Shown: positions 2,313 to 17,056 of the stretch, in pieces
Numbering within the stretch: position 1 is the stretch's first letter
Layout of the letters: every line of letters starts with the position of its first letter
Assembly: GCF_030013595.1 (NCBI RefSeq)
Contig: NZ_CP122768.1
Source of the DNA: Escherichia coli
GTDB taxonomy: Bacteria; Pseudomonadota; Gammaproteobacteria; Enterobacterales; Enterobacteriaceae
Length of the DNA: 64,000 nt
Direction: 5' to 3' (one strand)
The notes under the pieces: model-generated
The model's database searches: none
Seen by the model: the letters and a program-made list of their open reading frames with translations, nothing else
Told to the model about the DNA's origin: nothing
Position numbers and translations under genes: made by a program

Positions 2313-3032
2313 TCAGCGGCTCATCAACACTTCAGCAATATGCATCACTTTGACTTTCTGCCCTTCCCGTTGTAATCGCCCACTGATGTTCAGCAGGCAA
2401 CTCACGTCAGCACCAATTAAATACTCAGGGCGGACTTCCATCAGGTGCGCAACCTTTTCTTTCACCATCTCGCCGGATATTTCGGCCATTTTGACCGAGA
2501 ACGTGCCGCCAAATCCGCAGCAGGTATCCTGTTCAGCAAAGGTCAACAGCTCCAGTCCACGCACATTTTTCAGTAACGTAAGTGGCTCGTCCTTCACCCC
2601 CAGCTTACGGGCCAGGCTACAAGATGGGTGATACACCGCTCTCCCTTGCAAACTGGCACCTACATCGACTACCCCTAATGTATTAACAATAAAAGAGGTG
2701 AGATCCTGCATACGCGCGGCAACCTTTTCGGCACGTGATACCCATTCAGGTTCATCCGCCAGATACGTCGGGTAACTTTTTACGGCATAGGTGCAAGAGC
2801 CAGCCGGTGAAATAATGGGATCGTCGTTATCCTCCAGTGCGGCGATCAGATTTTTCATCCCTGGAATCGCTTCTTTGATATAACCACTATTGATCGCAGG
2901 CTGACCGCAGCATCCCTGTTTCTCCGGGAAATTTACGCGACAGCCGAGTTTTTCCAGTAGCAGCACGGAGTCTCGTGCCATTCTTGATTTCAGGGCGTCA
3001 CCAATACAGGTGACAAAGAAATTGACATTCAC
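2313..3032 (-). CDS. ykgE: LutA/YkgE Cys-rich (CCG-domain) oxidoreductase subunit
   Basis: 239 aa with CCG motifs (GCCGQPA, DTCCGFGG). First gene of the ykgEFG operon. Confidence 0.9.
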   Translation of the reverse strand: MNVNFFVTCIGDALKSRMARDSVLLLEKLGCRVNFPEKQGCCGQPAINSGYIKEAIPGMKNLIAALEDNDDPIISPAGSCTYAVKSYPTYLADEPEWVSRAEKVAARMQDLTSFIVNTLGVVDVGASLQGRAVYHPSCSLARKLGVKDEPLTLLKNVRGLELLTFAEQDTCCGFGGTFSVKMAEISGEMVKEKVAHLMEVRPEYLIGADVSCLLNISGRLQREGQKVKVMHIAEVLMSR

Positions 3033-3560
3033 AACTAATACTCCATTACTTCATGCCCATTTATGCCCGATGGTTCCCCCCTTCCGGGGGATCAATCATC
3101 AATAAATATGGCGTTCTTTTTTAATTGGCTAGCAACATACCACCCCTCATTTGTATGACAAATGATAATCTTTCATCCAAACTTCAAATGCAATAACTAA
3201 TTTTATTTCTTTCGGCATCGCTCACATTTTATAGGGAAATCGACGATCATTTTTGGCATAAGAAATCCATTTAAAAAGGCTACATCCCTTATACCTATTC
3301 AGTGCTACTTATTCAGGGGTTATTGAGATATACACTGATGGTGTACAAACAAAATCACCAACAATAATTACGTATCAAGTAATAATCGGCATTTTATTTA
3401 ATTGAAGCAATTTAGTTTGCATTTTTATTTAAAAACTGAGCTAGAGTCCATCAGAAAAAAAATATATAAAGCCCAAACCACCGTTGGAAATAGAAATAGT
3501 TGAAAGGCTCACAACTCCCGGAATGCGGATTATCTTTGCCCTGATTTCTGGCGGTTTTAT

Positions 3561-5903: not shown

Positions 5904-5929
5904 CGTATAGCTTAACGTGTAGCTAAAAA
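5904..5929 (+). repeat. Island-internal arm repeat, left copy (CGTATAGCTTAACGTGTAGCTAAAAA)
   Basis: Near-identical (1 mismatch) direct repeat of 16432-16457. Contains a palindromic TAGCTA hexamer (5920-5925). Confidence 0.7.
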
Positions 5930-6717: not shown

Positions 6718-6994
6718 ACCTTAGGAAATCTTAGGGGCTGGTTGACACTTTCCGGCTTAAGACCTTAACAAATCTTAACATCGCAGGTTGACACACTTGA
6801 CACTTTTTCGCGAAAAACCTTATCAAACCTTAGCATTTCTAAGCATGGCAACTTGACACTTTTCGCGATTTTTTCGGCTTTTTGACGTGGTAAATCTGGC
6901 GCAAAGCCAGTAACGGCGGGGTTTACAGCGAGGTTGACACTTTTTCGCGTTCAGAGTGTAAAGTGTCAACCTGGCAAGCTGCTCAACTTGACAC
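6718..6994. repeat. Iteron array: TTGACAC repeats interleaved with paired ACCTTA/ATCTTA half-sites
   Basis: TTGACAC at 6742, 6788, 6797, 6853, 6934 and 6988. Variant TTGACGT at 6882. Inverted copy at 6963-6969. Three A(C/T)CTTA pairs with 10-bp spacing at 6718/6728, 6762/6772 and 6817/6827. Confidence 0.85.
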
Positions 6995-7003
6995 TTTTTG
7001 AGG

Positions 7004-7701: not shown

Positions 7702-8355
7702 TCATAGCCAGCGCCCGGATATTTCTTCCAGTTTTTCCAGAGCTGGCTTGCAGGCCGCATCAATAACTTCACGGACCATTCCGGCGAGCTGTTCTTCTTC
7801 TGTCGGCGTTGTTACTTCCACACCTGATGGTTTCCCGCCCTTATCCCATACGCCCAACGGTACGAGCGCAACGTGATCGATAAGAAATGGCGTACCCTCA
7901 ATGAAAAAATTGTCCTCGCCCATTACATCAGGAACTTCTGCCCCACCGGACGCACCACAAAACACAACCGACGGGCTGGTGGATACCTCCCCCCGTGCTT
8001 TCTGGATGTAATCGATGATTTCCTGCCCGTAAATCCGGCATACGCCCCACACCTCGTCACCGCGAATATACGGCAACATGACGGTGCCAATAATGCGCGA
8101 CCGTTCGCCCACGTCTTCAAGGGTTTTGCTTTCGGGATGGTCGATAATGACGGGTACTCCGGCGCAACGTTCCAGGAACTGCGGATTGAGATAAGTTTGC
8201 GGTGAACGCCAGACAAATTCTTTTTCTTCGGCGCGATAGGCCATTCCGGTTCCTGTGATACGCAGGTTAATCAGCCACATGTTGGAAAACTGATAAGGCG
8301 ACGGTAGCTGACCGTCCCGAATCTGCTTTGCCGCCTCAATTTCTGTTAAAAGCAT
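7702..8355 (-). CDS. Putative prohead protease/scaffold-like protein (GPO / DUF2213-like)
   Basis: 217 aa. Segment order VIIDHPE .. IGTVMLPYIRGDEVWGVCRI .. VSTSPSV .. LIDHVALVPLGVWD parallels P2 gpO (RINLEH .. KWALFAKI .. VYTSMEI .. YLVGLAVTDDPA, recalled). The similarity is weak. Confidence 0.35.
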   Translation of the reverse strand: MLLTEIEAAKQIRDGQLPSPYQFSNMWLINLRITGTGMAYRAEEKEFVWRSPQTYLNPQFLERCAGVPVIIDHPESKTLEDVGERSRIIGTVMLPYIRGDEVWGVCRIYGQEIIDYIQKARGEVSTSPSVVFCGASGGAEVPDVMGEDNFFIEGTPFLIDHVALVPLGVWDKGGKPSGVEVTTPTEEEQLAGMVREVIDAACKPALEKLEEISGRWL

Positions 8356-8419
8356 AATGTCCCCCGGTTATAAGCAATAAGCCCCACCAAATCCGGCAGG
8401 GCTGAAATCAGCACGTTTT

Positions 8420-9004
8420 TCATGCCCCCGCGAGGCTTGCAACGTTAATTTTAACCAGGCGACGGGGAGGGATTTTGAAAGCACTAAGCCAGTTATTCGG
8501 ATCCCCCTGATATTCAGTAATCCGCCGTCCGGCTTCATCCATTCTTACGGTTTTACGCAAATAGCCCGGCGTATTTTCCACAGCCCACTGAACACTGTCT
8601 TTTGCAGCCTGGTAAATCTGATCTTCCAGCACCGCCAGCGTTGCAGAATCTGAAACGGAACGAATATCCACATCACTGAATTTTTTAGCCAGCTTCTGTG
8701 CACCAATTAATGCACGCTTGCGGTAATCCATCGACTTTTCACCAGCAAACGGGGCTGGAGCGCGACGGCCCATATTGCTGTATGCGGAATCCGCTTTAGC
8801 CTGGGCTTCTGCCAGTGAGGATTCATCTTCGACTGACGCGACGATGTTTTTATTCGCGTCATCCTCGTCCGCTTTTGTGAAATCCTGTGCGGGGATCGCA
8901 TTCAGAATTTCGATAATCTCCTGCGGAGTGCTGCCCTGCGACTCTGACAGAGCGTTAACCACCTCCATCAGTTTTAATCGCAAATCTTCTTTGCTTGCTG
9001 GCAT
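8420..9004 (-). CDS. Hypothetical 194-aa protein with acidic/helical N-half (possible scaffold or capsid-size factor)
   Basis: ATG at 9002-9004 with an AGGTGG RBS (the ORF-track GTG start lies 9 nt upstream). Located between the protease-like gene and a small RBS-bearing ORF. No family recognised. Confidence 0.5.
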   Translation of the reverse strand: MPASKEDLRLKLMEVVNALSESQGSTPQEIIEILNAIPAQDFTKADEDDANKNIVASVEDESSLAEAQAKADSAYSNMGRRAPAPFAGEKSMDYRKRALIGAQKLAKKFSDVDIRSVSDSATLAVLEDQIYQAAKDSVQWAVENTPGYLRKTVRMDEAGRRITEYQGDPNNWLSAFKIPPRRLVKINVASLAGA

Positions 9005-9043
9005 TTTTACCACCTCTCTTTTTTCACCAAAAAATCACGACCA

Positions 9044-9223
9044 TCAGGCCGGACGTTCTACGGGATAAAGCGCCCGCTGCATTAAACGCCGGGCGACCTC
9101 ATGAATGCTCGGAGCAATCCCCAGCGGAGAATTGCGGCGTTCCTCGTCCTGGATGCGCTGTAATGCTTCAATCTGATCACGAGCGAGTAAAACGGGTTTC
9201 ACGCTGGCTTTTCTCATAGTCAT
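9044..9223 (-). CDS. Hypothetical 59-aa protein
   Basis: MTMRKASVKPVLLARDQIEALQRIQ... The start at 9221-9223 is preceded by AGGAG 5 nt upstream. First ORF after the bidirectional terminator region. Confidence 0.45.
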   Translation of the reverse strand: MTMRKASVKPVLLARDQIEALQRIQDEERRNSPLGIAPSIHEVARRLMQRALYPVERPA

Positions 9224-9352
9224 ATCTCCTGAACAAAACAATGATTATGATTGCACAAACTGAAATAACGATCTACATCATTGCAATTTATGAAACAATA
9301 ACGCATGATGATCGCGTTCTTCCCATTGACTTCAATCACCTGAAAAACAAAG

Positions 9353-9381
9353 CCCGCAACACTTCTGGCTGCGGGTTTTTT
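9353..9381 (+). terminator. Intrinsic terminator on the + strand with no convincing + strand gene upstream
   Basis: CCCGCA (9353-9358) pairs with TGCGGG (9370-9375), followed by TTTTTT. Confidence 0.5.
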
Positions 9382-9389
9382 ACTGGCAC

Positions 9390-9413
9390 AAAAAAGCCGG
9401 GAAAAATCCCGGC
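9390..9413 (-). terminator. Intrinsic terminator after the PerC-like gene
   Basis: GCCGGGA (9396-9402) pairs with TCCCGGC (9407-9413). On the minus strand the hairpin is followed by a T6 run (A-run at 9390-9395 on +). Confidence 0.65.
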
Positions 9414-9418
9414 CTCCG

Positions 9419-9706
9419 TCACTGACTGCAATTTTTCGATCCAGGGTATTTCCTGAATGCCTTACCATTGGGCTGATGTAATCCCATCCCGGCATGTGCC
9501 CGGCTGATGGTTTCGCGCATTTCCCCGAAATTATCCTGCCTTGCTGGTGGGCGTGCTGCCTTGCGGATACATTCCGCGCGACGTTTTGCCGCCTGTTCCC
9601 GTGCCTTGTCATCATTCGCCAGCATGATGACCTCAGCCCACCGCGCCGCCGCTCTCCGGTACAGACCACGCGCTTCCAGTGCTTCCGCTTTGCTGTCGTG
9701 AATCAT
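9419..9706 (-). CDS. PerC/Pch-like small transcriptional activator
   Basis: 95 aa. The N-terminal motif KAEALEARGLYRRAAARWAEV fits the LE.xG.xRRAA.RW signature I recall for the PerC family. ATGA overlap with the upstream ProQ-like gene. Confidence 0.5.
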   Translation of the reverse strand: MIHDSKAEALEARGLYRRAAARWAEVIMLANDDKAREQAAKRRAECIRKAARPPARQDNFGEMRETISRAHAGMGLHQPNGKAFRKYPGSKNCSQ

Positions 9707-10245
9707 GCGCCTGTTTTCTCCTTTGCTGCCCGGCGCTGACGTTTGCGCTTCTCATTCAGCGCCACCAGCCGCGTTTCTGCGTCCTGTTGTTCCTGTGGTG
9801 TCACCTCGCCGCACGGCTGGCCTTTCAGGTCGTAGCGTACCCCACCAGCCATTAAGGCGCGGTAATAGCGCGGACACTGCGCATAAGATGCCAGCGTCGC
9901 ACGCAATGCCCCTGGACCGAATGCCAGCCCCCTGACGGCGAGATCCTGCATCAGGTCGTCGAATATCCCCACCTTAAGCGGCTTCGGTGCTTCCCGGCTG
10001 AATAATTCAGGCCACAACTCAGTGAGGCGGTTAACGCGCCTGCGGTTTTTGCGCTGGCGTTTGGTCATATGCCGCCACGGTGTCGCCCCTGTGGGCTTCT
10101 GCTGCGCTTTCTGGTTACCGGGCATCACTTTATGCGCCGATGTGGTTTTATCCTGCTCCTGCGCCGCCTGCGTCGTTTTCTGCGGCGTGCCGTAAATGCC
10201 TTTCGGTTTTCTGTTAATGGTCAGCTTAGTCATGCTTTGCCCCAT
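9703..10245 (-). CDS. ProQ/FinO-domain RNA-binding protein
   Basis: LTELWPELFSREAPKPLKVGIFDDLMQDL...ALRATLASYAQCPRYYRALMAGGVRYDLKGQPCGEVTPQE aligns residue-for-residue in pattern with the ProQ N-terminal domain (FPHCFS..RPLKIGIFQDL..LRSALRLYTSSWRYL..RVDLDGNPCGEL, recalled). Confidence 0.75.
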   Translation of the reverse strand: MGQSMTKLTINRKPKGIYGTPQKTTQAAQEQDKTTSAHKVMPGNQKAQQKPTGATPWRHMTKRQRKNRRRVNRLTELWPELFSREAPKPLKVGIFDDLMQDLAVRGLAFGPGALRATLASYAQCPRYYRALMAGGVRYDLKGQPCGEVTPQEQQDAETRLVALNEKRKRQRRAAKEKTGA

Positions 10246-10326
10246 CGTTTTTACTGGTTGCTACGTTGCCCAACGGCACTGACACAACATTCTGTTTTCA
10301 TTTTTAACATTCCTGATTTTTTAATT

Positions 10327-10708
10327 CCTCACCTGCTGCACAGTGAAAATTTATGAAGTTAATAACAATATGATTTTAAATGTATTTTTAAGTACTCACT
10401 TTTTAATCCTTATATATACGCAAAAGTGAGGTAAATAGTTAAGTTTTAGTTAATATCTTGCATGGTGTGTTTTTTAACCTACCTGTTATTTTTATTACCT
10501 CATTTCTATTAACTCACCATTCCTCACTTTTGTTCCTCACTTTTTATTATTCTTGTTCTGCTCCTCAGTCGTTTTCTTTATTGTTGTAATCTGTTGTTTT
10601 GCAATGTGTTTTTAACTCCTCACTTTTTGACCTATATACAGGTGAGAAAGTGAGGAGTGGCGTTGATTTTTTGTTAAATTACCCGCCATCCTCACTTTTG
10701 CTCCTCAC
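10327..10708. repeat. Replication-origin iterons (CCTCAC(T)TTT) in AT-rich DNA directly 3' of the replicase gene
   Basis: CCTCAC at 10327, 10522, 10535, 10618, 10690 and 10703. Inverted GTGAGG at about 10426 and at 10650. Variants ACTCAC (10394) and CCTCAT (~10498). Long T/A tracts lie between them. Confidence 0.8.
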
Positions 10709-10711
10709 TTT

Positions 10712-12127
10712 TTACAGTGGGCGCACATAATCACCGTCAATAGCGATTACGCCGTCGCTTTCCAGCTTGTACAGCCAGCGCCGGAAGTTTTTCATTTCAT
10801 ACCCCAGCTTTTTCATATCATCGCGGAGAAGGGCGATAGTGCACGCCTCCCCGTGTGCTGTTCGCGTTCTGATGCACTGCCATAGCGCAGCGTGATTTTC
10901 CGTCTTGTTCCCGGCCTCCTCGATGCGTTCCAGTTCAACAGGTGGGCGCGGCTTATCCACAACCACCAGCGACGTGATTAACTCCCCGTCAGTGTCGGTA
11001 AAAAGCTCCACCACGCGTAAATCATATGCAGCCTCTTTCAGTTCCTCCGCGTCCTTCATTTTGGTGCAGGAGATAACCAGGGCTTCACTGTCCGCACCTT
11101 CACGGCGAATACGGTATTCAGCGTCCAGAGATGCACGAAATGCACTGGAACCACGCGCCCCTTTTGTTTCATCCTTGCCGGAATGGTGAACCACCAGTAC
11201 CGTGGCCCCTGTGCGTCGTTTCAGTTCGTCACATCCACGGATAAACGCCCCCATATCCCGCGCGTCATTTTCATCATTACCGCCAAAGCAACGCGCCAGC
11301 GTATCCAGAATAATCATGCGTACCGGTTTACCCGTTTCCCGTTCAACCTGACGGGAAGCGATGACCATTTCATCAACATCAAGCGGGACCGCCGGAAAAA
11401 TCGGGCGGTTTACCAGGTACAGATTTTTCACCCGTTCATCATTAACGATTTCCCATGCTTTGATACGACGAGGAACACCGATCCCGCCCTCACCAACGAC
11501 ATACATAACCGCACCATGTACAACCCTGCGACCTCCCCAGTGGCGACCAGTGGCAACATGACACGCCCAGGAACACGCGAGGAACGATTTATAGGAACCG
11601 CTCGCGCCGTATGTGCTGCACAACGAATTAGCCGGAATCACGCCCTTAACGACATAATCAAGCTGTGTGTCGTATCCTGCAGATCCAATACTCATTGGTA
11701 GCGTGGTTTTTCGCTGGCTGTATTGCTCGTCAGTAAGTATTTCCCCGCGCTCTGCCTGTTCGCGGATCCGTTGCAGGTAGTCGTGCCAGTTCTCCAGCTT
11801 CTGGCTGTGCATTCCCTCAGGGTAATAATTCGCATCCCGTACACCTGCCGCCGCCAGTTTTTGCCCGATGGCATTAATATTTGACGGCTTGATGTGGCCT
11901 GCCTTGTACAGCCGGACACAATAGCGACCATCGTCGATAATTTTCAGGTCTGCCAGTTCGTCAAGCTGGCTGTCTCCCAGCCATACAGGCGGAACATTGT
12001 CGCCAGCAAGTCGCCCGTCCTGTTCCTGCCATTGTTTCGCGTGCGCCCAGGCATCACTACCCGCAAAAATAATGACTTCGGTCATTTTGTCGTGTGGCTG
12101 TTTTTTTAAGTTCGGTGCCAGTTTCAT
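10712..12127 (-). CDS. Satellite replicase: RepA/AAA_25-type (RecA-fold) ATPase with N-terminal primase-like region and C-terminal wHTH
   Basis: 471 aa. Walker A YGASGSYKS, Walker B MIILDTLARCFGG, and VLVVHHSGKDETKGARGSSA (DnaB/RepA-like motif). Iterons follow the stop codon. Confidence 0.75.
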   Translation of the reverse strand: MKLAPNLKKQPHDKMTEVIIFAGSDAWAHAKQWQEQDGRLAGDNVPPVWLGDSQLDELADLKIIDDGRYCVRLYKAGHIKPSNINAIGQKLAAAGVRDANYYPEGMHSQKLENWHDYLQRIREQAERGEILTDEQYSQRKTTLPMSIGSAGYDTQLDYVVKGVIPANSLCSTYGASGSYKSFLACSWACHVATGRHWGGRRVVHGAVMYVVGEGGIGVPRRIKAWEIVNDERVKNLYLVNRPIFPAVPLDVDEMVIASRQVERETGKPVRMIILDTLARCFGGNDENDARDMGAFIRGCDELKRRTGATVLVVHHSGKDETKGARGSSAFRASLDAEYRIRREGADSEALVISCTKMKDAEELKEAAYDLRVVELFTDTDGELITSLVVVDKPRPPVELERIEEAGNKTENHAALWQCIRTRTAHGEACTIALLRDDMKKLGYEMKNFRRWLYKLESDGVIAIDGDYVRPL

Positions 12128-12423
12128 TTTGTGCCCCTGAATGCGTTAATCATGTTTTTCATTTTCTGAATATTTGCCCGTGCCTTTGCGTTGCTGGTGG
12201 GCTGTTTGCGTGGTGTGGCCTGTATCAGTGAAAAATCACGCCGGAACTGATAAACAGGCATCACGCAGTCGTAGCTGTACCCATCACGGCGGTAAGTAAC
12301 GCACCGTCCGGCAATACTTTTAATCGTTACCGTGCCGCCGTAGTTATCCCGGAAAATATCGCCGGGGCGGATTTCAGGCCGAGGGAGACCACTGGCAGTA
12401 AAGCCAGAATTTTTCTTTTTCAT
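12124..12423 (-). CDS. Small conserved protein (DUF4222-like)
   Basis: 99 aa. IRPGDIFRDNYGGTVTIKSIAGRCVTYRRDGYSYDCVMPVYQFRRDF resembles DUF4222 proteins of P4-like prophages (recalled). ATGA overlap with the replicase. Confidence 0.45.
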   Translation of the reverse strand: MKKKNSGFTASGLPRPEIRPGDIFRDNYGGTVTIKSIAGRCVTYRRDGYSYDCVMPVYQFRRDFSLIQATPRKQPTSNAKARANIQKMKNMINAFRGTK

Positions 12424-12427
12424 GGTT

Positions 12428-12628
12428 TTATTTTCCTGTCAGCAGTTCCGGTTTTATTTCCGCACGAATACAGAGTTCAGAAAAAAATTCAGGAGAACCA
12501 ACAATCTCATTACTTTTCAGTCGGCATTGTGATTTCACTTTCCCTTTATCCAGGTAAACCAGTATGCGTCCGGTGAAATCATCTGGCACACTCAGGGTAA
12601 TTGTCATTGTTGCTTGCTGATTATCCAT
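12428..12628 (-). CDS. Hypothetical 66-aa protein, one copy of a ~45-aa DxFTG module
   Basis: VPDDFTGRILVYLDKGKVKSQCRLKSNEIVGSPEFFSELCIRAEI. 8-nt overlap with the upstream gene. Confidence 0.55.
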   Translation of the reverse strand: MDNQQATMTITLSVPDDFTGRILVYLDKGKVKSQCRLKSNEIVGSPEFFSELCIRAEIKPELLTGK

Positions 12629-12986
12629 GATTCACCCCCTGAATAACCTGATAACCGCAACTGGTCAGCAATTCGATAAATTCCGGCAGTGTTCCGAAAC
12701 AGCAATCATCTCGCAGCCGTTCTCGGGATACTTCAACGCCGTTTTCGTAGTGACTCACCATGCGTCCGGTAAAATGCAGATCATCATCGTGATGGCTCGT
12801 TAACGGCTTAATCAGTCGCGCACGTTCTGCCAGCTCCAGCAATGCTTCAACGCTTCCGGCAATTGCACCATCCGGCAGGTGATAATTACTTGCCACGCGT
12901 CCATTCTCCACGTTAACCAGTAGCTGCCCGGTGAATTTCTCATCAAACTGAATGCTGTTAAGGTCAGAAATTGACAGGTTAATCAT
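12621..12986 (-). CDS. Hypothetical 121-aa protein, two copies of the same DxFTG module
   Basis: FDEKFTGQLLVNVENGRVASNYHLPDGAIAGSVEALLELAERARL and DDDLHFTGRMVSHYENGVEVSRERLRDDCCFGTLPEFIELLTSCGY. 8-nt overlaps on both sides. Confidence 0.55.
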   Translation of the reverse strand: MINLSISDLNSIQFDEKFTGQLLVNVENGRVASNYHLPDGAIAGSVEALLELAERARLIKPLTSHHDDDLHFTGRMVSHYENGVEVSRERLRDDCCFGTLPEFIELLTSCGYQVIQGVNHG

Positions 12987-13344
12987 GGCGTACCTCCTGG
13001 CGAATACGGGCAGCGAATACCATCACGCAGCCATCAGGAGATTGCTGGCGTGCTTCCTGTTCGCTGGTGGCCACGATGTGAATCACGCGCGGTTGTGCGG
13101 TGCTCAGGGCGATAAAACGCCAGATAAAATTGTTTTCGCATTTCTGAATAAACAGCGTGTTTTCTTCGCGCCCTTTCCATGTTGCCGAGATATAGCCCAT
13201 GCCATTGAGCATCTCGCAGGCATCAACCAGCGTATCAGCGGCTACGTGTACAGTGTTTTTACCGTCAGCTATGCAATCACGGTGCACCGCCAGGAAGGTG
13301 TATATAAATTTAGGGTGAGTTTGGGTATGCTGTGTTCCAGCCAT
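12979..13344 (-). CDS. Icd-like (host cell division inhibitor-like) protein
   Basis: 121 aa from the ATG at 13342-13344 (GAGGT RBS): MAGTQHTQTHPKFIYTFLAVHRD ... NNFIWRFIALSTAQPRVIHIVATSEQEARQQSP..VFAARIRQE. This is the FIW.F.A / SE.EAR signature of Icd-like proteins (recalled). It is the only credible part of the 478-aa ORF. Confidence 0.55.
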   Translation of the reverse strand: MAGTQHTQTHPKFIYTFLAVHRDCIADGKNTVHVAADTLVDACEMLNGMGYISATWKGREENTLFIQKCENNFIWRFIALSTAQPRVIHIVATSEQEARQQSPDGCVMVFAARIRQEVRHD

Positions 13345-13446
13345 AATCGTTACCTCATTTAACGGTTTGGTTAGAAGCCCCGTTACTGCTCCAACAGTGC
13401 GGGGCTTCGTCGTTTCAATTGCTGAATTGCATGTATCAGCCCTTGT

Positions 13447-13499
13447 GGTATTCAGATTACATTTTGGTGAATACCATTTCAAGTCTTTTTTGGTATTCA
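13447..13499. promoter_or_regulatory. Operator-like repeats in the divergent region between the Icd-like operon and the RHH gene
   Basis: GGTATTCA (13447-13454), inverted TGAATACC (13468-13475), and GGTATTCA again (13492-13499). A 9-bp-stem hairpin GAAGCCCCG..CGGGGCTTC lies at about 13373-13407. Confidence 0.45.
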
Positions 13500-13543
13500 C
13501 TTTTGTATTACACTGCATCCCGTTATTAATCGGAGGTGCAAAC

Positions 13544-13849
13544 ATGTCCACGAGTTCTGTTAACAATAAGTCACAGCAACTGAATGCCAGATTTCCACAT
13601 GAAGTAGTGAGTGGCATTGAGGCATCCCTACAGCCAGGGGAAACTAAAGCGAATTTTATAGTTACGGCTGTACGCGGTGAGATCGCCCGCCGCCAGGCAG
13701 AAGGAAGCGGAGAAAACCCCCTGGTTTCTTCGCTCGATGCGCTGGCGCAGGTGGAAAAAATCGGAGTCAAAGCTGCCGAGGAGATCGGGCAGCTCGTCAC
13801 CGTCGCACGTGAAGAACTCCAGCGCCGCAAGGCCAAAGAATCAGAATAA
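13544..13849 (+). CDS. YlcI/YnfO-family (DUF3950, ribbon-helix-helix-like) protein, candidate island regulator
   Basis: 101 aa from the ATG at 13544 (GGAGG RBS 7 nt upstream). KSQQLNARFPHEVVSGIEASL..KANFIVTAVRGEI resembles K-12 YlcI (NIRFPNQMIEQINIAL..GNFSAWVIEAC, recalled). It is one of very few + strand genes in the island. Confidence 0.6.
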   Translation: MSTSSVNNKSQQLNARFPHEVVSGIEASLQPGETKANFIVTAVRGEIARRQAEGSGENPLVSSLDALAQVEKIGVKAAEEIGQLVTVAREELQRRKAKESE

Positions 13850-13906
13850 TAACTATCATCGCCGTGGTGTGAGGAACTCCGGCGCATTGCTTTACAGGTA
13901 CACAGA

Positions 13907-14107
13907 ATGACCAACAAAGAATCAACCAAAACACCATCACCAACCCGGAAGAGACGTCGCAAAAATATGACGCACGAGCATGAATCAGACAGATTCGCGC
14001 CGTGTGCGTTTGTCCTTGAGACGTTCCTTAAAGAGTACAGGCGCACAAAATTAGGGCCACATACCTGGAAAACATCGCGACATAGCGATATTAAAGAGCA
14101 GGAATAG
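13907..14107 (+). CDS. Possible basic 66-aa protein
   Basis: ORF only. Weak RBS, Lys/Arg-rich N-terminus, lies upstream of the + strand terminator. Confidence 0.25.
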   Translation: MTNKESTKTPSPTRKRRRKNMTHEHESDRFAPCAFVLETFLKEYRRTKLGPHTWKTSRHSDIKEQE

Positions 14108-14216
14108 CCCACCAGCAAGTCAGCATATTCACCATAATGACCCTCGGTTAAACCTAGAGTCATTGGTGCAAACCTGACACATTGCCCACCAGCCAGCAAA
14201 TCGCTATGATATTTGG

Positions 14217-14268
14217 GCTTATGTTTAGTGTTTTCCCATTGGCGACCGCCCCCGGTCGCCTTTGTTTT
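14217..14268 (+). ncRNA. Candidate ~50-nt small RNA (promoter plus strong terminator, no ORF)
   Basis: TTGCCC (14182-14187), a 17-nt spacer, then TATGAT (14205-14210). The terminator has GGCGACCG (14241-14248) pairing with CGGTCGCC (14253-14260), a CCCC loop, and TTTGTTTT. Confidence 0.3.
14241..14268 (+). terminator. Strong intrinsic terminator ending + strand transcription before alpA
   Basis: 8-bp GC-rich stem, 4-nt loop, U-tract. Confidence 0.75.
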
Positions 14269-14364
14269 GCCCGTTATCCGGCAATTGTGGCGCTTCGCCA
14301 CACGGTTGATATAATTCCCCTGCACTGATCCATTTTTTTCGCAGCAGGTTAATTGTTCGCAAGG

Positions 14365-14389
14365 GCGCTCCGGCAACGGGGCGCTTTTT
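14365..14389 (+). terminator. Second + strand intrinsic terminator
   Basis: GCGCTCC (14365-14371) pairs with GGGGCGC (14378-14384; one G-U pair), followed by TTTTT. Confidence 0.5.
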
Positions 14390-14419
14390 GTTATGTTCAT
14401 CGCGTTACGCCTCACACCA

Positions 14420-14626
14420 TTACGCAGCCGTTCCGCGCGCTTCTTCCTCGCGCTCTTTCAGCCAGGCCAGCACTTCATCTTCATACCAGCCAACACGACG
14501 CAGACCGATTTTGAAGCCTTTCGGGAATTTTCCGGCGTTGATCATGTCCTGTAGCGAACTGTCTGCCTTGATGCGCAGAATATTTTTTACTTCCTGACGG
14601 GTAAGTATTTTTCTGATTGTTTCCAC
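14420..14626 (-). CDS. alpA: AlpA-family transcriptional regulator / excisionase-like HTH protein
   Basis: 68 aa. ILTRQEVKNILRIKADSSLQDMINAGKFPKGFKIGLRRVGWYEDEVLAWL is the typical AlpA/CP4-57 regulatory motif. Confidence 0.85.
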   Translation of the reverse strand: METIRKILTRQEVKNILRIKADSSLQDMINAGKFPKGFKIGLRRVGWYEDEVLAWLKEREEEARGTAA

Positions 14627-14697
14627 TATGTTTTACCTCGTTAATCCGGCGTATTCCGGTGATAAATACGGTAAAACAGGGCAGGGCGGGAAAAACA

Positions 14698-14731
14698 GTA
14701 CCCACCGTTTTAAAACGGTACCCACTGTTTT
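14698..14731. promoter_or_regulatory. Direct repeats upstream of alpA (GTACCCAC(C/T)GTTTT x2 around a CCGTTTTAAAACGG palindrome)
   Basis: Copies at 14698-14711 and 14718-14731. They lie between the upstream terminator and the alpA start. Confidence 0.45.
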
Positions 14732-14760
14732 TATCTCATTGATTACGCTTTTCTTTCTGC

Positions 14761-14791
14761 AAAAAAATAGCGACCGCAAAGGGCCGCTATT
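14761..14791 (-). terminator. Intrinsic terminator separating the int-orf unit from alpA
   Basis: The minus strand reads AATAGCGGCCCTTTGCGGTCGCTATTTTTTT, a hairpin followed by a T7 run. Confidence 0.6.
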
Positions 14792-14795
14792 GTGA

Positions 14796-15026
14796 TTACC
14801 GTTTCCACTTCTTAGGTCGCCCACCGCATTTAAGGCTGGTGGGCCTCAGCACCTTGTCGATGCTTTCAGCCAGATTTTTCGATGCACCACGCGAGCGCAA
14901 AAAACTGACTACCTCGTGTTTTGTGGGGGCTGTTGATTTGTCTTCCGGATCGTATGTTGACCAGAATTCACGATTTGCCATTAACGCCAGTTGCAGCCCT
15001 TCGCCGTAGGCGGTGGTATTTTGCAT
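14796..15026 (-). CDS. Hypothetical 76-aa protein downstream of int
   Basis: ORF with a basic C-terminus (GGRPKKWKR). No family recognised. Confidence 0.45.
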   Translation of the reverse strand: MQNTTAYGEGLQLALMANREFWSTYDPEDKSTAPTKHEVVSFLRSRGASKNLAESIDKVLRPTSLKCGGRPKKWKR

Positions 15027-15124
15027 AATAGAATTTTCATATACTCCGGCCTTGTCGTTAAATTTGTGGCAATTATACGATGGTTTGGCATGGTTTGCAT
15101 CGCTTTTACTGGCTTTTTGTACAG

Positions 15125-16366
15125 CTACACGGCACGGATACCCCTTTTACCGCTGGCTATGGTCACTCCGGTAGCTGCAGCCTCCACAAATTCACCCCAC
15201 CAGCGCATAAGCACCACGCGCTTTTCCAGGTAGTTACTTCGGTTATATGCCCGCCTTACCTCGTTCGTGTCCACGTGTGCGAGTGCGGCCTCGATTACGT
15301 CCGGTTCGAATCCTTCCTCGTTCGCTGCTGTGCTGAATATGGCGCGTAATCCGTGAGACACCAGCACACCAGCGTAACCCATCCGGCGTAATGCAGCGTT
15401 AGCGGTCTGGCTGCTCATTGGCAGCATCGGATTTTTAAGGCTGGGAAAAACGTGTTCCCTGTGTGCGCTGATTGGCTTCATGGTTTCCAGTACAGCCATA
15501 GCCTGACCGCAAAGGGGGATCACATGGTCACGGCGCATCTTCATGCGTCCGGCTGGAATCGTCCAGGTTTCGGCATCGAGATCTATTTCTTCCCAGCGTG
15601 CGGCGGCTGCTTCGGCTGGGCGTGCTACGGTCAGCAGTTGCCACTCAATCAGCAATCTGGTTTGCCGTTCTATGCTGGCGACCGATAAATCGTGCATTAG
15701 CTGCGGTAGCTGTTCCGGTCGGATGGTTGGCATGTGCTTTTTGGTGGGTGAGGGGAATGCCTTGCGGACGTTCGCGGCGGTGTTGATGTCAATCAGCCCA
15801 CTGTTGGCGGCAAAATCCATCACTTCATTGATGCGCTGCAAAACGCGTTTCAGAGTTTCCAGGTTGCCGCGTGCTTTAATGGGGGTGAGTATCTCAACAA
15901 AGCGGCGAGCGGTGAGGGTATCTATTGGCGTGTTTCCGATGTACGGGAATACGTATTTTTCCAGGGATCGCCAGATATCCTTAATCGTGTTGTAAGCCAG
16001 ATTCTGGCCTTTTTTCATCTCGTACCAGTCCGAGGCAACTTTTTCGAACGTGTTGCCCTTTTTCCGGCTCTCTGCTTCACGTTTCCGGCGTTCATGGTCC
16101 TGTGGGTCAGTTCCCTTTGCTATTAGTGACCTGTATTCATTCCGTCGCTCTCTGGCATCAGACAGGGAAACATCATTCAGCGATCCAAGGCTGATAATAG
16201 TCCGTTTTTTATCTGCCGGGCGGTAGTACGTAAAACGCCATATTTTTGATCCGGAGGGCTTCACCAGAAGAAATAATCCTCCGCCATCCTGCAGGGTGTA
16301 TTCCTTTTCCCCTGGTCGTGCGTTTTTGATCTCCGTAATGGTTAGTGGGGTGGTTTTTCGTGCCAT
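15125..16366 (-). CDS. int: P4-type tyrosine integrase (DUF4102 arm-binding N-domain)
   Basis: 413 aa. N-terminus TEIKNARPGEKEYTLQDGGGLFLLVKPSGSKIWRFTY. Catalytic region ...LTVARPAEAAAARWEEIDL...HGLRAIFSTAANE...ALAHV..NEVRRAYNRSNYLEKR (R..HxxR..Y). Confidence 0.92.
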   Translation of the reverse strand: MARKTTPLTITEIKNARPGEKEYTLQDGGGLFLLVKPSGSKIWRFTYYRPADKKRTIISLGSLNDVSLSDARERRNEYRSLIAKGTDPQDHERRKREAESRKKGNTFEKVASDWYEMKKGQNLAYNTIKDIWRSLEKYVFPYIGNTPIDTLTARRFVEILTPIKARGNLETLKRVLQRINEVMDFAANSGLIDINTAANVRKAFPSPTKKHMPTIRPEQLPQLMHDLSVASIERQTRLLIEWQLLTVARPAEAAAARWEEIDLDAETWTIPAGRMKMRRDHVIPLCGQAMAVLETMKPISAHREHVFPSLKNPMLPMSSQTANAALRRMGYAGVLVSHGLRAIFSTAANEEGFEPDVIEAALAHVDTNEVRRAYNRSNYLEKRVVLMRWWGEFVEAAATGVTIASGKRGIRAV

Positions 16367-16383
16367 GTTTTTTTACCCATCGG

Positions 16384-16457
16384 TAGCTATATGCCTGGTC
16401 GTAGCTATACGGCTTTAGCTACACGCTGGACCGTATAGCTAAACGTGTAGCTAAAAA
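16384..16457. repeat. Integrase-proximal arm-site cluster: five palindromic TAGCTA hexamers plus the right copy of the 26-bp arm repeat
   Basis: TAGCTA at 16384, 16402, 16416, 16436 and 16448. CGTATAGCTAAACGTGTAGCTAAAAA at 16432-16457 matches 5904-5929. Confidence 0.7.
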
Positions 16458-16504
16458 ATCCGGTTATAACCCTATCTTACCGATTCAATCCGGCGACTGA
16501 AAAC

Positions 16505-16540
16505 AACAAAAAAGCCCGTTAATCAGTAAATTAACGGGCT
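16505..16540 (-). terminator. Strong hairpin/terminator just inside the right island end
   Basis: AGCCCGTTAAT (16513-16523) pairs perfectly with ATTAACGGGCT (16530-16540). On the minus strand it is followed by TTTTTTGTTGTTTT. Confidence 0.65.
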
Positions 16541-16582
16541 TTCAATAGGTTACCGATGCTGTCCGATATTCAATTTGGTCGG

Positions 16583-16589
16583 CACGAGA
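16583..16589. repeat. Right junction direct repeat (attR core candidate) CACGAGA
   Basis: Identical to 5835-5841. A TATTCAA motif lies at 16567-16573. Confidence 0.6.
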
Positions 16590-16711
16590 TGATCAATATA
16601 GTGAAAATGGTGATGGATGCCGGGCTGCCTTATAGCATATTACGCGATCAGATATTTACTCATCCGTCGATGAGCGAATCACTCAATGATCTATTTTCAT
16701 TAGTCAAATAA
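16583..16711 (+). pseudogene. rclA: rclA 3' fragment (last 42 codons plus stop)
   Basis: HEMINIVKMVMDAGLPYSILRDQIFTHPSMSESLNDLFSLVK* is the C-terminal interface-domain segment, with the HPxxxE dyad, of the oxidoreductase begun at 4642. Confidence 0.9.
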
Positions 16712-16819
16712 ACTCAAAATCAGACGCCAGAACAAATATTCTGGCGTCTCAGAGAAAAGAATCTTATTAATTCCCTGTTACTTTATAACTTCTTAATCAC
16801 TTCATTGATGGTATTTTAT

Positions 16820-17056
16820 ATGTTTAAAAAACCTGTTTTATTTGCAACACTATTATCTGGCGTTATGGCATTTTCCACCAATGCAGATGATAAAATAATT
16901 CTGAAACATATCAGCGTCTCGTCAGTATCAGCATCACCGACAGTTCTTGAGGATGCCATTGCTGATATGGCCAGAAAATATAATGCTTCATCCTGGAAAG
17001 TTACATCGATGCGAATTGATAATAATTCAACCGCAACAGCAGTATTGTATAAATAA
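16820..17056 (+). CDS. rclB: RclB (YkgI), small periplasmic DUF1471/YhcN-family protein
   Basis: 78 aa from MFKKPVLFATLLSGVMAFSTNA (signal peptide). Position between rclA and rclC. Confidence 0.85.
   Translation: MFKKPVLFATLLSGVMAFSTNADDKIILKHISVSSVSASPTVLEDAIADMARKYNASSWKVTSMRIDNNSTATAVLYK

Follow-up and report, generated by a model that had tools for sequence, protein, structure and literature searches.

The window analysed here is a 64,000-nucleotide stretch of an Escherichia coli genome (contig NZ_CP122768.1), and our subject is the segment between alpA and the replication genes of a small island within it, where features lie on both DNA strands (Table 1). On the minus strand, alpA is followed by an open reading frame (ORF) of 478 aa whose in-frame 3′ end is an Icd-like gene, the first gene of the leftward replication operon. 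On the plus strand, antisense to that ORF, lie a gene of the ylcI family, a second small ORF (orf66) and two terminators, T1 and T2. The space between the ylcI-like and Icd-like genes holds four repeats (O1 to O4), two divergent predicted promoters (P_L for the operon, P_R for ylcI) and the region of a putative cis-antisense RNA that includes a 9-bp hairpin. A preliminary description of the window had listed many of these features, and all that it listed are found where it had placed them. We give a probability of about 40% to the reading that YlcI, the four phased operators and the antisense RNA form the silencing system of phage-inducible chromosomal islands (PICIs) of the EcCICFT073 type, that this system is overprinted antisense in an eta-like ORF selected only for translatability, and that an AlpA-driven coupled pass of transcription and translation overruns all of it.

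Table 1. Features of the switch region, followed by the other genes of the island. Positions are those of the window.
Feature	Position	Strand	Remarks
ylcI-like gene, 101 aa	13544-13849	plus	NF041551 YlcI_YnfO_N, E 1.3e-16; candidate operator-binding repressor
orf66, 66 aa	13907-14107	plus	phrog_21027, E 6.8e-31
T1 terminator module, conserved 95 bp	14174-14268	plus	stem 14241-14260, T-tract to 14268
T2 terminator	14361-14396 (hairpin 14361-14388)	plus	12 pairs, then TTTTTGTT
O1, TGGTATTCA	13446-13454		over start site of P_L
O2, TGAATACCA	13468-13476		in P_L spacer; reverse complement of O1
O3, TGGTATTCA	13491-13499		upstream of P_R -10 box
O4, TGCATCCCG	13514-13522		at P_R start site; degenerate in the window (6/9 matches)
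P_L, predicted icd/replication operon promoter	13454-13482	minus	-35 TTGAAA 13482-13477, 17-bp spacer, -10 TAATCT 13459-13454
-10 box TACACT of P_R, predicted ylcI promoter	13509-13514	plus	family consensus TGTGTATACT
Putative cis-antisense RNA, ~80 nt	~13338-13418 (both ends estimated)	plus	complementary to Icd-like start codon, Shine-Dalgarno (SD) sequence and leader
-10 box TATGCT of proposed antisense-RNA promoter	13326-13331	plus	
SL1 of putative antisense RNA	13347-13364	plus	anti-SD CCUC in loop
Terminator stem of putative antisense RNA	13374-13408 (arms 13374-13382 and 13400-13408)	plus	9 bp, 100% complementary, T-rich tail next
Icd-like (P4 Kil-type) gene, 121 codons	12979-13344	minus	NF033153 phage_ICD_like, E 5.7e-23
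Long eta-like ORF, 478 aa	12979-14415	minus	start GTG 14415, or GAGG-N9-ATG 14400
alpA	14420-14626	minus	Pfam Phage_AlpA, E 4.5e-8; activator/excisionase family
76-aa ORF		minus	between integrase and alpA in island gene list
Integrase	15125-16366	minus	
Two small ORFs, then DUF4222		minus	after Icd-like gene in island gene list
RepA-type helicase (AAA_25)	10712-12127	minus	
ProQ/FinO gene		minus	last in island gene list

The island is about 10.5 kb long and is probably bounded by att sites, predicted from 26-nt direct repeats at 5904-5929 and 16432-16457 (CGTATAGCT(T/A)AACGTGTAGCTAAAAA) that are 96% identical and 10,528 bp apart. The repeats and the gene order, int, alpA and then the replication module, give the layout of a Gram-negative PICI of the EcCICFT073 type, and EcCICFT073 itself (NC_004431.1, 1377930-1388654) has the same gene order as the window. 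AlpA is the helper-induced activator in PICIs (PMC6092414, PMC11773190), and an ORF3 reporter fusion downstream of alpA in EcCICFT073 is dependent on it (PMC6092414), while the global repressor of Gram-negative PICIs has been called unclear (PMC6092414). The islands are described as unidirectional in these two papers and in PMC10111431, which for this zone mentions only RNA immunity, and none of the three attributes a function to the repeats, to an antisense RNA or to the YlcI gene on the opposite strand. Judged on its sequence, there is an even chance that this segment controls both immunity and induction in a Gram-negative PICI of the EcCICFT073 type, by means of an operator repressor, an antisense RNA and a pass-through ORF.

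What does the opposite strand encode? Residues 9-50 of YlcI score 60.3 bits against NF041551, above the curated cutoff of 30 bits, and place the protein in the YlcI/YnfO family. The start codon of ylcI is preceded at 7 nt by GGAGG, and substitutions in the gene fall mainly at third codon positions (0.49, vs 0.16 and 0.115). The same bias is seen in orf66 (0.249, vs 0.109 and 0.09), which is probably a small protein co-transcribed with ylcI; Pfam returned nothing significant for it, and its homologues are annotated in loci L002 and L003 of the comparison set described below and in EcCICFT073. In E. coli ETEC4077, whose locus is 97.6% identical, PGAP gives the same genes, including a plus-strand 'YlcI/YnfO family protein', and parts of the 1.8-kb region are matched by 1472 of 5426 complete E. 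coli genomes. The T-tracts of T1 and T2 stand on the plus strand and both terminators are predicted to function on that strand only, the minus strand of T2 having no U-tract; they would stop the ylcI transcript before alpA. The preliminary description was right about the 66-aa ORF and about both terminators. In compact islands, the minus strand of the T1 module holds the SD sequence and ATG of the long ORF.

The preliminary description also called YlcI ribbon-helix-helix (RHH)-like. The gene is real and conserved and has a good ribosome-binding site, but no test confirms the fold. The pattern LNARFPHEVV...GETKANFIV resembles RHH proteins of the Arc/Mnt/CopG type, with alternating LNARF, P, a helix, G-E-T and a second helix. 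Pfam gave nothing significant (PF07704 at E 0.013, under its cutoff), hhalign against Arc and Mnt was too weak to use (Arc probability 11%), and neither Foldseek against the PDB nor PDB sequence searches with the profile and the N-terminal domain found an RHH or any other fold. The AlphaFold (AF2) monomer is all-helical, with pLDDT of 57-62 at residues 1-20. We regard RHH as a lead only, and YlcI as a candidate operator-binding repressor on the strength of the anatomy. Long forms of the protein (~101 aa) have an extra C-terminal segment (residues 55-101, 13700-13846) that the short forms (59-61 aa) do not; it is modelled as one long helix with pLDDT up to 94 and possibly serves oligomerisation. 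Its weak HhH-like similarity to Hef (E 0.008) was set aside, being unsupported by the single helix of the model. Literature searches on YlcI/YnfO/DUF3950, on RHH proteins in satellites and on Icd-like antisense RNAs found no functional description.

The layout is not peculiar to the window. About 30 related islands from E. coli to Xenorhabdus, EcCICFT073 among them, were compared, the number of loci varying by analysis: 28 in the genome scan, 29 in the alignments and 32 in the stop-codon counts. YlcI-like proteins form 128 homologue clusters at E ≤ 0.001 across Enterobacterales. In the 28 genome-scan loci, whose genera include Enterobacter, Xenorhabdus, Photorhabdus, Serratia, Proteus, Morganella, Cedecea, Pantoea and Yersinia and whose integrases are only 24-44% identical, ylcI is opposite in strand to int and alpA and lies between these and the replication genes. 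An Icd-like match is found in 12 of them, and DUF4222 and RepA/primase matches in fewer. Across Enterobacterales, EcCICFT073 included, the same geometry is kept: alpA and the ylcI unit are convergent, ylcI and the icd/replication operon divergent. The EcCICFT073 module (L040, 1379525-1381052) consists of alpA, an opposite-strand 57-aa orf66 homologue and 59-aa YlcI/YnfO gene, and then the Icd-like gene; its frame in phase with the latter runs without a stop for 367 codons and reaches 35 nt beyond the alpA stop, and the N-terminal part of this long ORF contains a weak Bro-N remnant (E 0.053). A sister island, L042 (NZ_CP102488.1), has the same Icd-like gene and antisense-RNA region at 2800-3250. 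In the ylcI position its plus strand encodes another protein, of 59 aa (PFQFRLDPELRELMEQ...), accompanied by palindromic repeats of its own, and a TIR-domain gene lies between that protein and alpA.

What are the repeats in the divergent region for? O1, O2 and O3 are the only three exact copies of the 9-mer in the 64 kb. When the 130 bp preceding the ylcI start codons are aligned without gaps, they reveal a conserved scaffold of TTGAC and TAnnnT blocks, 17 bp apart and reading leftward, and a rightward TGTGTATACT block. A TTGA(C/A)-type -35 box of P_L is present in nearly all 29 loci, and all -10 hexamers inspected fit TAnnnT. Variation is confined to four slots set into this scaffold and spaced 22-23 bp apart, which in about 30 loci lie about 98, 76, 53 and 30 bp before the ylcI start codon, with each -10 box bracketed by two of them. 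A chance origin of the repeats can be discounted, given that the same four positions recur from locus to locus; slot 4, degenerate in the window, is a perfect repeat in many other loci. The slots of one locus hold the same 9-12-mer and the motif differs from locus to locus, so that a locus's own motif gives a summed slot match of 30.1 of 36, where foreign motifs give 21.2 and shuffled regions 25.9. As the preliminary description had supposed, the repeats have the properties expected of operators, as far as sequence can tell.

The motif follows the N-terminus of YlcI. Where different genera have an N-terminal segment in common they have the motif in common too: E. coli and Yersinia combine SKQISIRI with TGAATCACA, Xenorhabdus and Proteus SQKMSARV with ACTGGCACCCA. 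Could the repeats instead be binding sites for AlpA, which after all binds DNA and activates PICI genes (PMC6092414)? Between the window and L004 we find 100% identical AlpA proteins, YlcI proteins only 35% identical, and different operators, which excludes AlpA as the reader of the repeats; diverged AlpA proteins accompany the same repeats where the YlcI N-termini match, and a separate pair of direct repeats lies upstream of alpA. We find an AlpA site here scarcely credible. Since their sequence changes with the YlcI N-terminus and not with AlpA, the repeats are very likely YlcI operators.

Even as the reader of these sites, YlcI might not control replication. It could be an autoregulated accessory regulator, for example of helper-phage functions, with repeats that serve ylcI autoregulation only. 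The function of the family is listed by PHROGs as 'unknown function', and ylcI and ynfO of E. coli K-12 both reside in lambdoid prophages; ylcI of DLP12 (L041, 580251-580445) lies on the opposite strand upstream of the adjoining nohD, which encodes a terminase small-subunit homologue. Its presence in a lambdoid prophage and not a satellite means that the family is used in at least two genomic contexts. We think a purely accessory role improbable in the islands, given that O1 and O2 cover the conserved -10 box and the spacer of P_L and not the ylcI promoter, that the module is always directly upstream of the replication operon, and that L042 has a different small protein in the same position.

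The 9-bp hairpin was correctly reported by the preliminary description, which missed its probable role as the terminator of a plus-strand antisense RNA of about 80 nt. In an alignment of 29 loci (13322-13426, plus strand), the proposed -10 box TAnnnT is invariant at T5, A6 and T10 (TGGTATAAT in L004), and in every locus inspected it stands 36-37 nt from a conserved TGGTTAGA motif. Its A corresponds to the third base of the overlapping minus-strand codon, which encodes His, Ser, Tyr, Cys or Phe and is always NNT, never NNC. RNAalifold predicts two hairpins with 22 pairs, 16 of which show compensatory changes; none of 500 shuffles reaches the observed covariation, and slid controls are 37-43% paired. 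In the plus orientation 97.2% of cells are paired, as against 86.0% in the minus orientation, and there are 75 G·U cells to 4 A·C cells, an imbalance that indicates a plus-strand RNA. Downstream of the stem on the plus strand, the next 10 nt contain a mean of 5.4 T, and a T-tract is found on that strand only. Most simply, the element would encode a plus-strand RNA that is complementary over its full length to the Icd-like leader, ribosome-binding site and start codon. At the level of sequence, the features of a cis-antisense RNA of the sar/OOP-like class are all present: a predicted promoter of its own, overlap with the ribosome-binding site, a predicted terminator and a conserved structure. 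Rfam searches of 8000-17000 at permissive E-values (E ≤ 1) returned no credible family, and none for the putative antisense RNA.

The hairpin and its flanks might otherwise act in the leader of the minus-strand mRNA, as a processing site, a stabiliser or a translational structure, with no plus-strand RNA at all. The element does lie within the predicted P_L leader, and the loop of the SL1 complement contains the Icd-like SD sequence. An element working on the minus strand is hard to reconcile with the orientation of the pairing and of the G·U cells, with a T-tract 3′ of the stem on the plus strand only, and with an invariant plus-strand TAnnnT box whose A lies at a synonymous site of the overlapping codon. 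This explanation strikes us as about as improbable as the accessory role for YlcI, perhaps slightly more so.

How should the 478-aa ORF be regarded, which the preliminary description dismissed as spurious? Its account of the composition was accurate: the ORF is rich in Cys, Ser and Arg except for its last 121 codons, the Icd-like gene with its own ribosome-binding site (GAGG 8 nt upstream of the ATG at 13344). The first 357 aa contain 5.9% Cys, 10.4% Ser and 7.6% Arg, compared with 1.0, 7.0 and 5.2% in the long chromosomal ORFs of the window, and have no Pfam, NCBIfam or PHROG match. The frame itself is another matter. It passes antisense through T2, T1, orf66, ylcI, the operators and the antisense-RNA region and enters the Icd-like gene in frame, and in 27 of 29 loci the frame in phase with the Icd-like gene has no stop in the promoter region or anywhere antisense to ylcI. 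Taken over 32 loci, the 200-bp promoter/leader has 12 stops in 2112 codons of this frame, and the other two minus-strand frames 186 and 198, a depletion of about 16-fold; antisense to ylcI there is 1 stop, compared with 109 and 171. In six of the eight annotated E. coli loci, nothing interrupts the in-phase frame in the 513-1165 nt that separate it from the stop of the upstream gene (alpA or ant); O157:H7 has the alpA stop itself in this frame, and in 19 of 29 loci a minus-strand ORF ends no more than 60 nt from the upstream limit of the open frame. The frame starts with an SD sequence and ATG at or beside that stop. The alpA TAA of the window (14422-14420) is followed by the two candidate starts of the long ORF, L034 has TAG-GGGGAACAT-ATG and L035 AGGGGGAGTAT-ATG, and in L002 a GGAGG-N9-ATG overlaps the ant stop. 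No 3-base periodicity of substitutions is seen in the promoter/leader or in 14108-14419. Depletion of stops without periodicity means that the frame is kept open and the protein sequence is not conserved. It would appear that the ORF is not simply spurious and that it matters by being translated, not by its protein.

The contrary position, that the ORF is a meaningless antisense shadow and that convergent transcription of alpA and ylcI alone works the switch with no part for translation, draws on the odd composition and missing family match of the N-terminal 357 aa and on the lack of codon periodicity outside the plus-strand genes. The third positions of the ORF also coincide with those of ylcI, which favours shadow ORFs. 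We consider it unlikely, if not lightly dismissed, in view of the depletion of stops in a single frame of an AT-rich non-coding promoter region in 32 loci, the extension of the frame to an upstream stop that adjoins an SD sequence and ATG, and the precedent of P4 discussed below. Locus L038 (LR881103.1, 'Escherichia phage vB_KppS-Ant', 16.5 kb) was deposited as a phage and looks like a capsid-forming PICI, with int, regulator, primase, capsid, portal and terminase genes; in its ylcI region the long ORF has been annotated as a minus-strand coding sequence of 975 bp, and the plus strand there has no annotated gene. As for the Icd-like protein, an N-terminal motif occurs in it twice (KFIYTFLAV, residues 12-20, and NFIWRFIAL, residues 72-80), the NCBIfam domain covers only residues 73-116, and PGAP flags the ETEC4077 copy as a pseudogene.

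The arrangement is reminiscent of eta and kil of P4. There, translation of eta from the late promoter carries transcription through the immunity region and prevents immunity-specific termination (PMC10111431, citing Forti 1999), and Kil is a truncated, nested form of eta (PMC10111431). The eta ORF has 214 codons and overlaps the stop of vis, the alpA homologue, with ATGATGATG over the vis TGA; its C-terminus matches NF033153 at E 1.4e-20, the same Icd-like domain as in the window. Both systems have an alpA/vis gene and, from its stop, a long ORF with a nested Icd-like (Kil) end that heads a primase operon; P4 also has a promoter inside this ORF. In the window the start of the long ORF adjoins the alpA stop and the Icd-like end has its own SD sequence and ATG; an internal promoter is suggested by the TTGAC-17-TAnnnT arrangement found in nearly all 29 loci, which a simple scan does not flag. 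Immunity is where the two part company. P4 uses a same-strand C4/CI RNA with seqA/seqC targets, whereas the interior of the window's ORF carries an opposite-strand protein gene, operators and a putative cis-antisense RNA. Rfam searches of 8000-17000 (E ≤ 1) found none of RF01695, RF01394 and RF03163, all three of which were found in the P4 control (74.9 bits), and blastn of the leader against phage records gave no P4 similarity. A P4-like same-strand seqA/seqB reading of the TCTAACCA motif was dropped, there being no same-strand complement nearby.

In immI of phage P22, the small repressors Arc and Mnt act on back-to-back divergent promoters, and the sar antisense RNA covers a ribosome-binding site. 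The window resembles immI in having a candidate repressor, predicted divergent promoters and a putative short antisense RNA, and LNARFPHEV of YlcI resembles FNLRWPREV of Arc. Differences are the absence of homology detectable by hhalign, that immI is not known to have an enclosing pass-through ORF, and that P22 is a phage, not a satellite. A further parallel is Stl/Rpr of the Gram-positive PICIs (SaPIs), a repressor that diverges from the excision/replication operon and keeps the island silent (PMC6092414). Unlike Stl, which is co-oriented with int and inactivated by binding of a helper protein, the candidate repressor YlcI converges on int-alpA and would be bypassed by read-through. EcCICFT073 and EcCIMP1 are islands of the same class, in which helper-induced AlpA is needed for downstream expression (PMC6092414, PMC11773190); EcCICFT073 contains the module described here.

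How might the switch operate? At rest, ylcI would be transcribed rightward from P_R, and T1 and T2 would end the transcript before alpA. YlcI bound to O1-O4 would shut P_L, and with it the Icd-like gene and replication operon, and would autoregulate P_R. Any transcript that leaked from P_L would be blocked by a constitutive plus-strand RNA of ~80 nt, through pairing with the Icd-like leader, SD sequence and start codon. Induction is envisaged by analogy with P4. The helper phage would switch on alpA, a step that has been shown experimentally for related PICIs (PMC6092414, PMC11773190). RNA polymerase would then run leftward past the alpA stop, and translation would begin afresh there, at the start of the long ORF. 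Ribosomes would cross the strand opposite ylcI, the operators and the target of the antisense RNA, and would enter the Icd-like domain without a change of frame. The replication genes would be expressed with no need for P_L or the Icd-like ribosome-binding site, the RNA would be shielded from Rho, and head-on transcription would lower ylcI expression. A scan found no strong minus-strand terminator between alpA and the operon, which makes the read-through of alpA over the ylcI unit, already suggested in the preliminary description, plausible. The mutually exclusive maintenance and induction programmes that it proposed seem broadly right, with the amendment that the ORF it dismissed is probably what makes the induction programme win.

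Several observations weigh against this mechanism and against its parts. Every functional step, whether binding, repression, antisense blocking or read-through, is inferred from an anatomy that is itself visible in the DNA, and the fold tests on YlcI (Pfam, PDB sequence, hhalign, AF2 and Foldseek) were all without significance. A simple sigma-70 scan flagged none of P_L, P_R and the antisense-RNA promoter; in the window, only 3 of the 6 bases in the P_L -10 box are those of the consensus, and no -35 box can be recognised for P_R. The YlcI N-terminus SQQLNARF occurs with two motifs that differ at 2 of 9 positions, TGAATACCA in the window and TGAATCGCA in Proteus/Morganella, and ylcI and its operators are less than 100 bp apart, so that co-inheritance adds to the apparent covariation. 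For the long ORF, a dN/dS-type separation from ylcI was abandoned, with the third positions coinciding as they do; the open frame ends before it reaches the upstream gene in L003 and L036, is broken within the promoter/leader in L006, L008, L010, L014 and L016, and extends for only 24 codons in L042, which keeps the antisense-RNA region.

Other features of the island were noted in passing. The direct repeats upstream of alpA, GTACCCAC(C/T)GTTTT at 14698-14711 and 14718-14731, are the only two in the 64 kb and could be a site for AlpA autoactivation or for a helper activator. In the terminator scan, a strong minus-strand terminator at 14791-14766 insulates the alpA promoter from int. Five TTTnnnTCCTCACTTTTT iteron copies just downstream of the RepA helicase gene (10387-10714) likely mark the replication origin of the island, and TTGACACTTTTT(CGCG) motifs are repeated three to four times within 230 bp (6770-7003) toward its far end.

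The proposed parts are all of known kinds: a repressor with its operators, a cis-antisense RNA and an eta/kil pass-through ORF. Their combination, a repressor gene overprinted antisense in an obligatorily open ORF and taking the place of the RNA immunity of P4, is not described in the literature searched. The long open frame would account for annotation pipelines that call long 'nonsense' ORFs here or flag pseudogenes, and it could be viewed as a natural example of a frame kept open for the act of translation, with the real protein on the opposite strand. Gram-negative PICIs are widespread and mobilise virulence and defence genes. The module, present also in the model island EcCICFT073, looks like a candidate for the silencing switch not yet identified in this island class, and it comes with exact predicted coordinates for the operators, the promoters and the small RNA.

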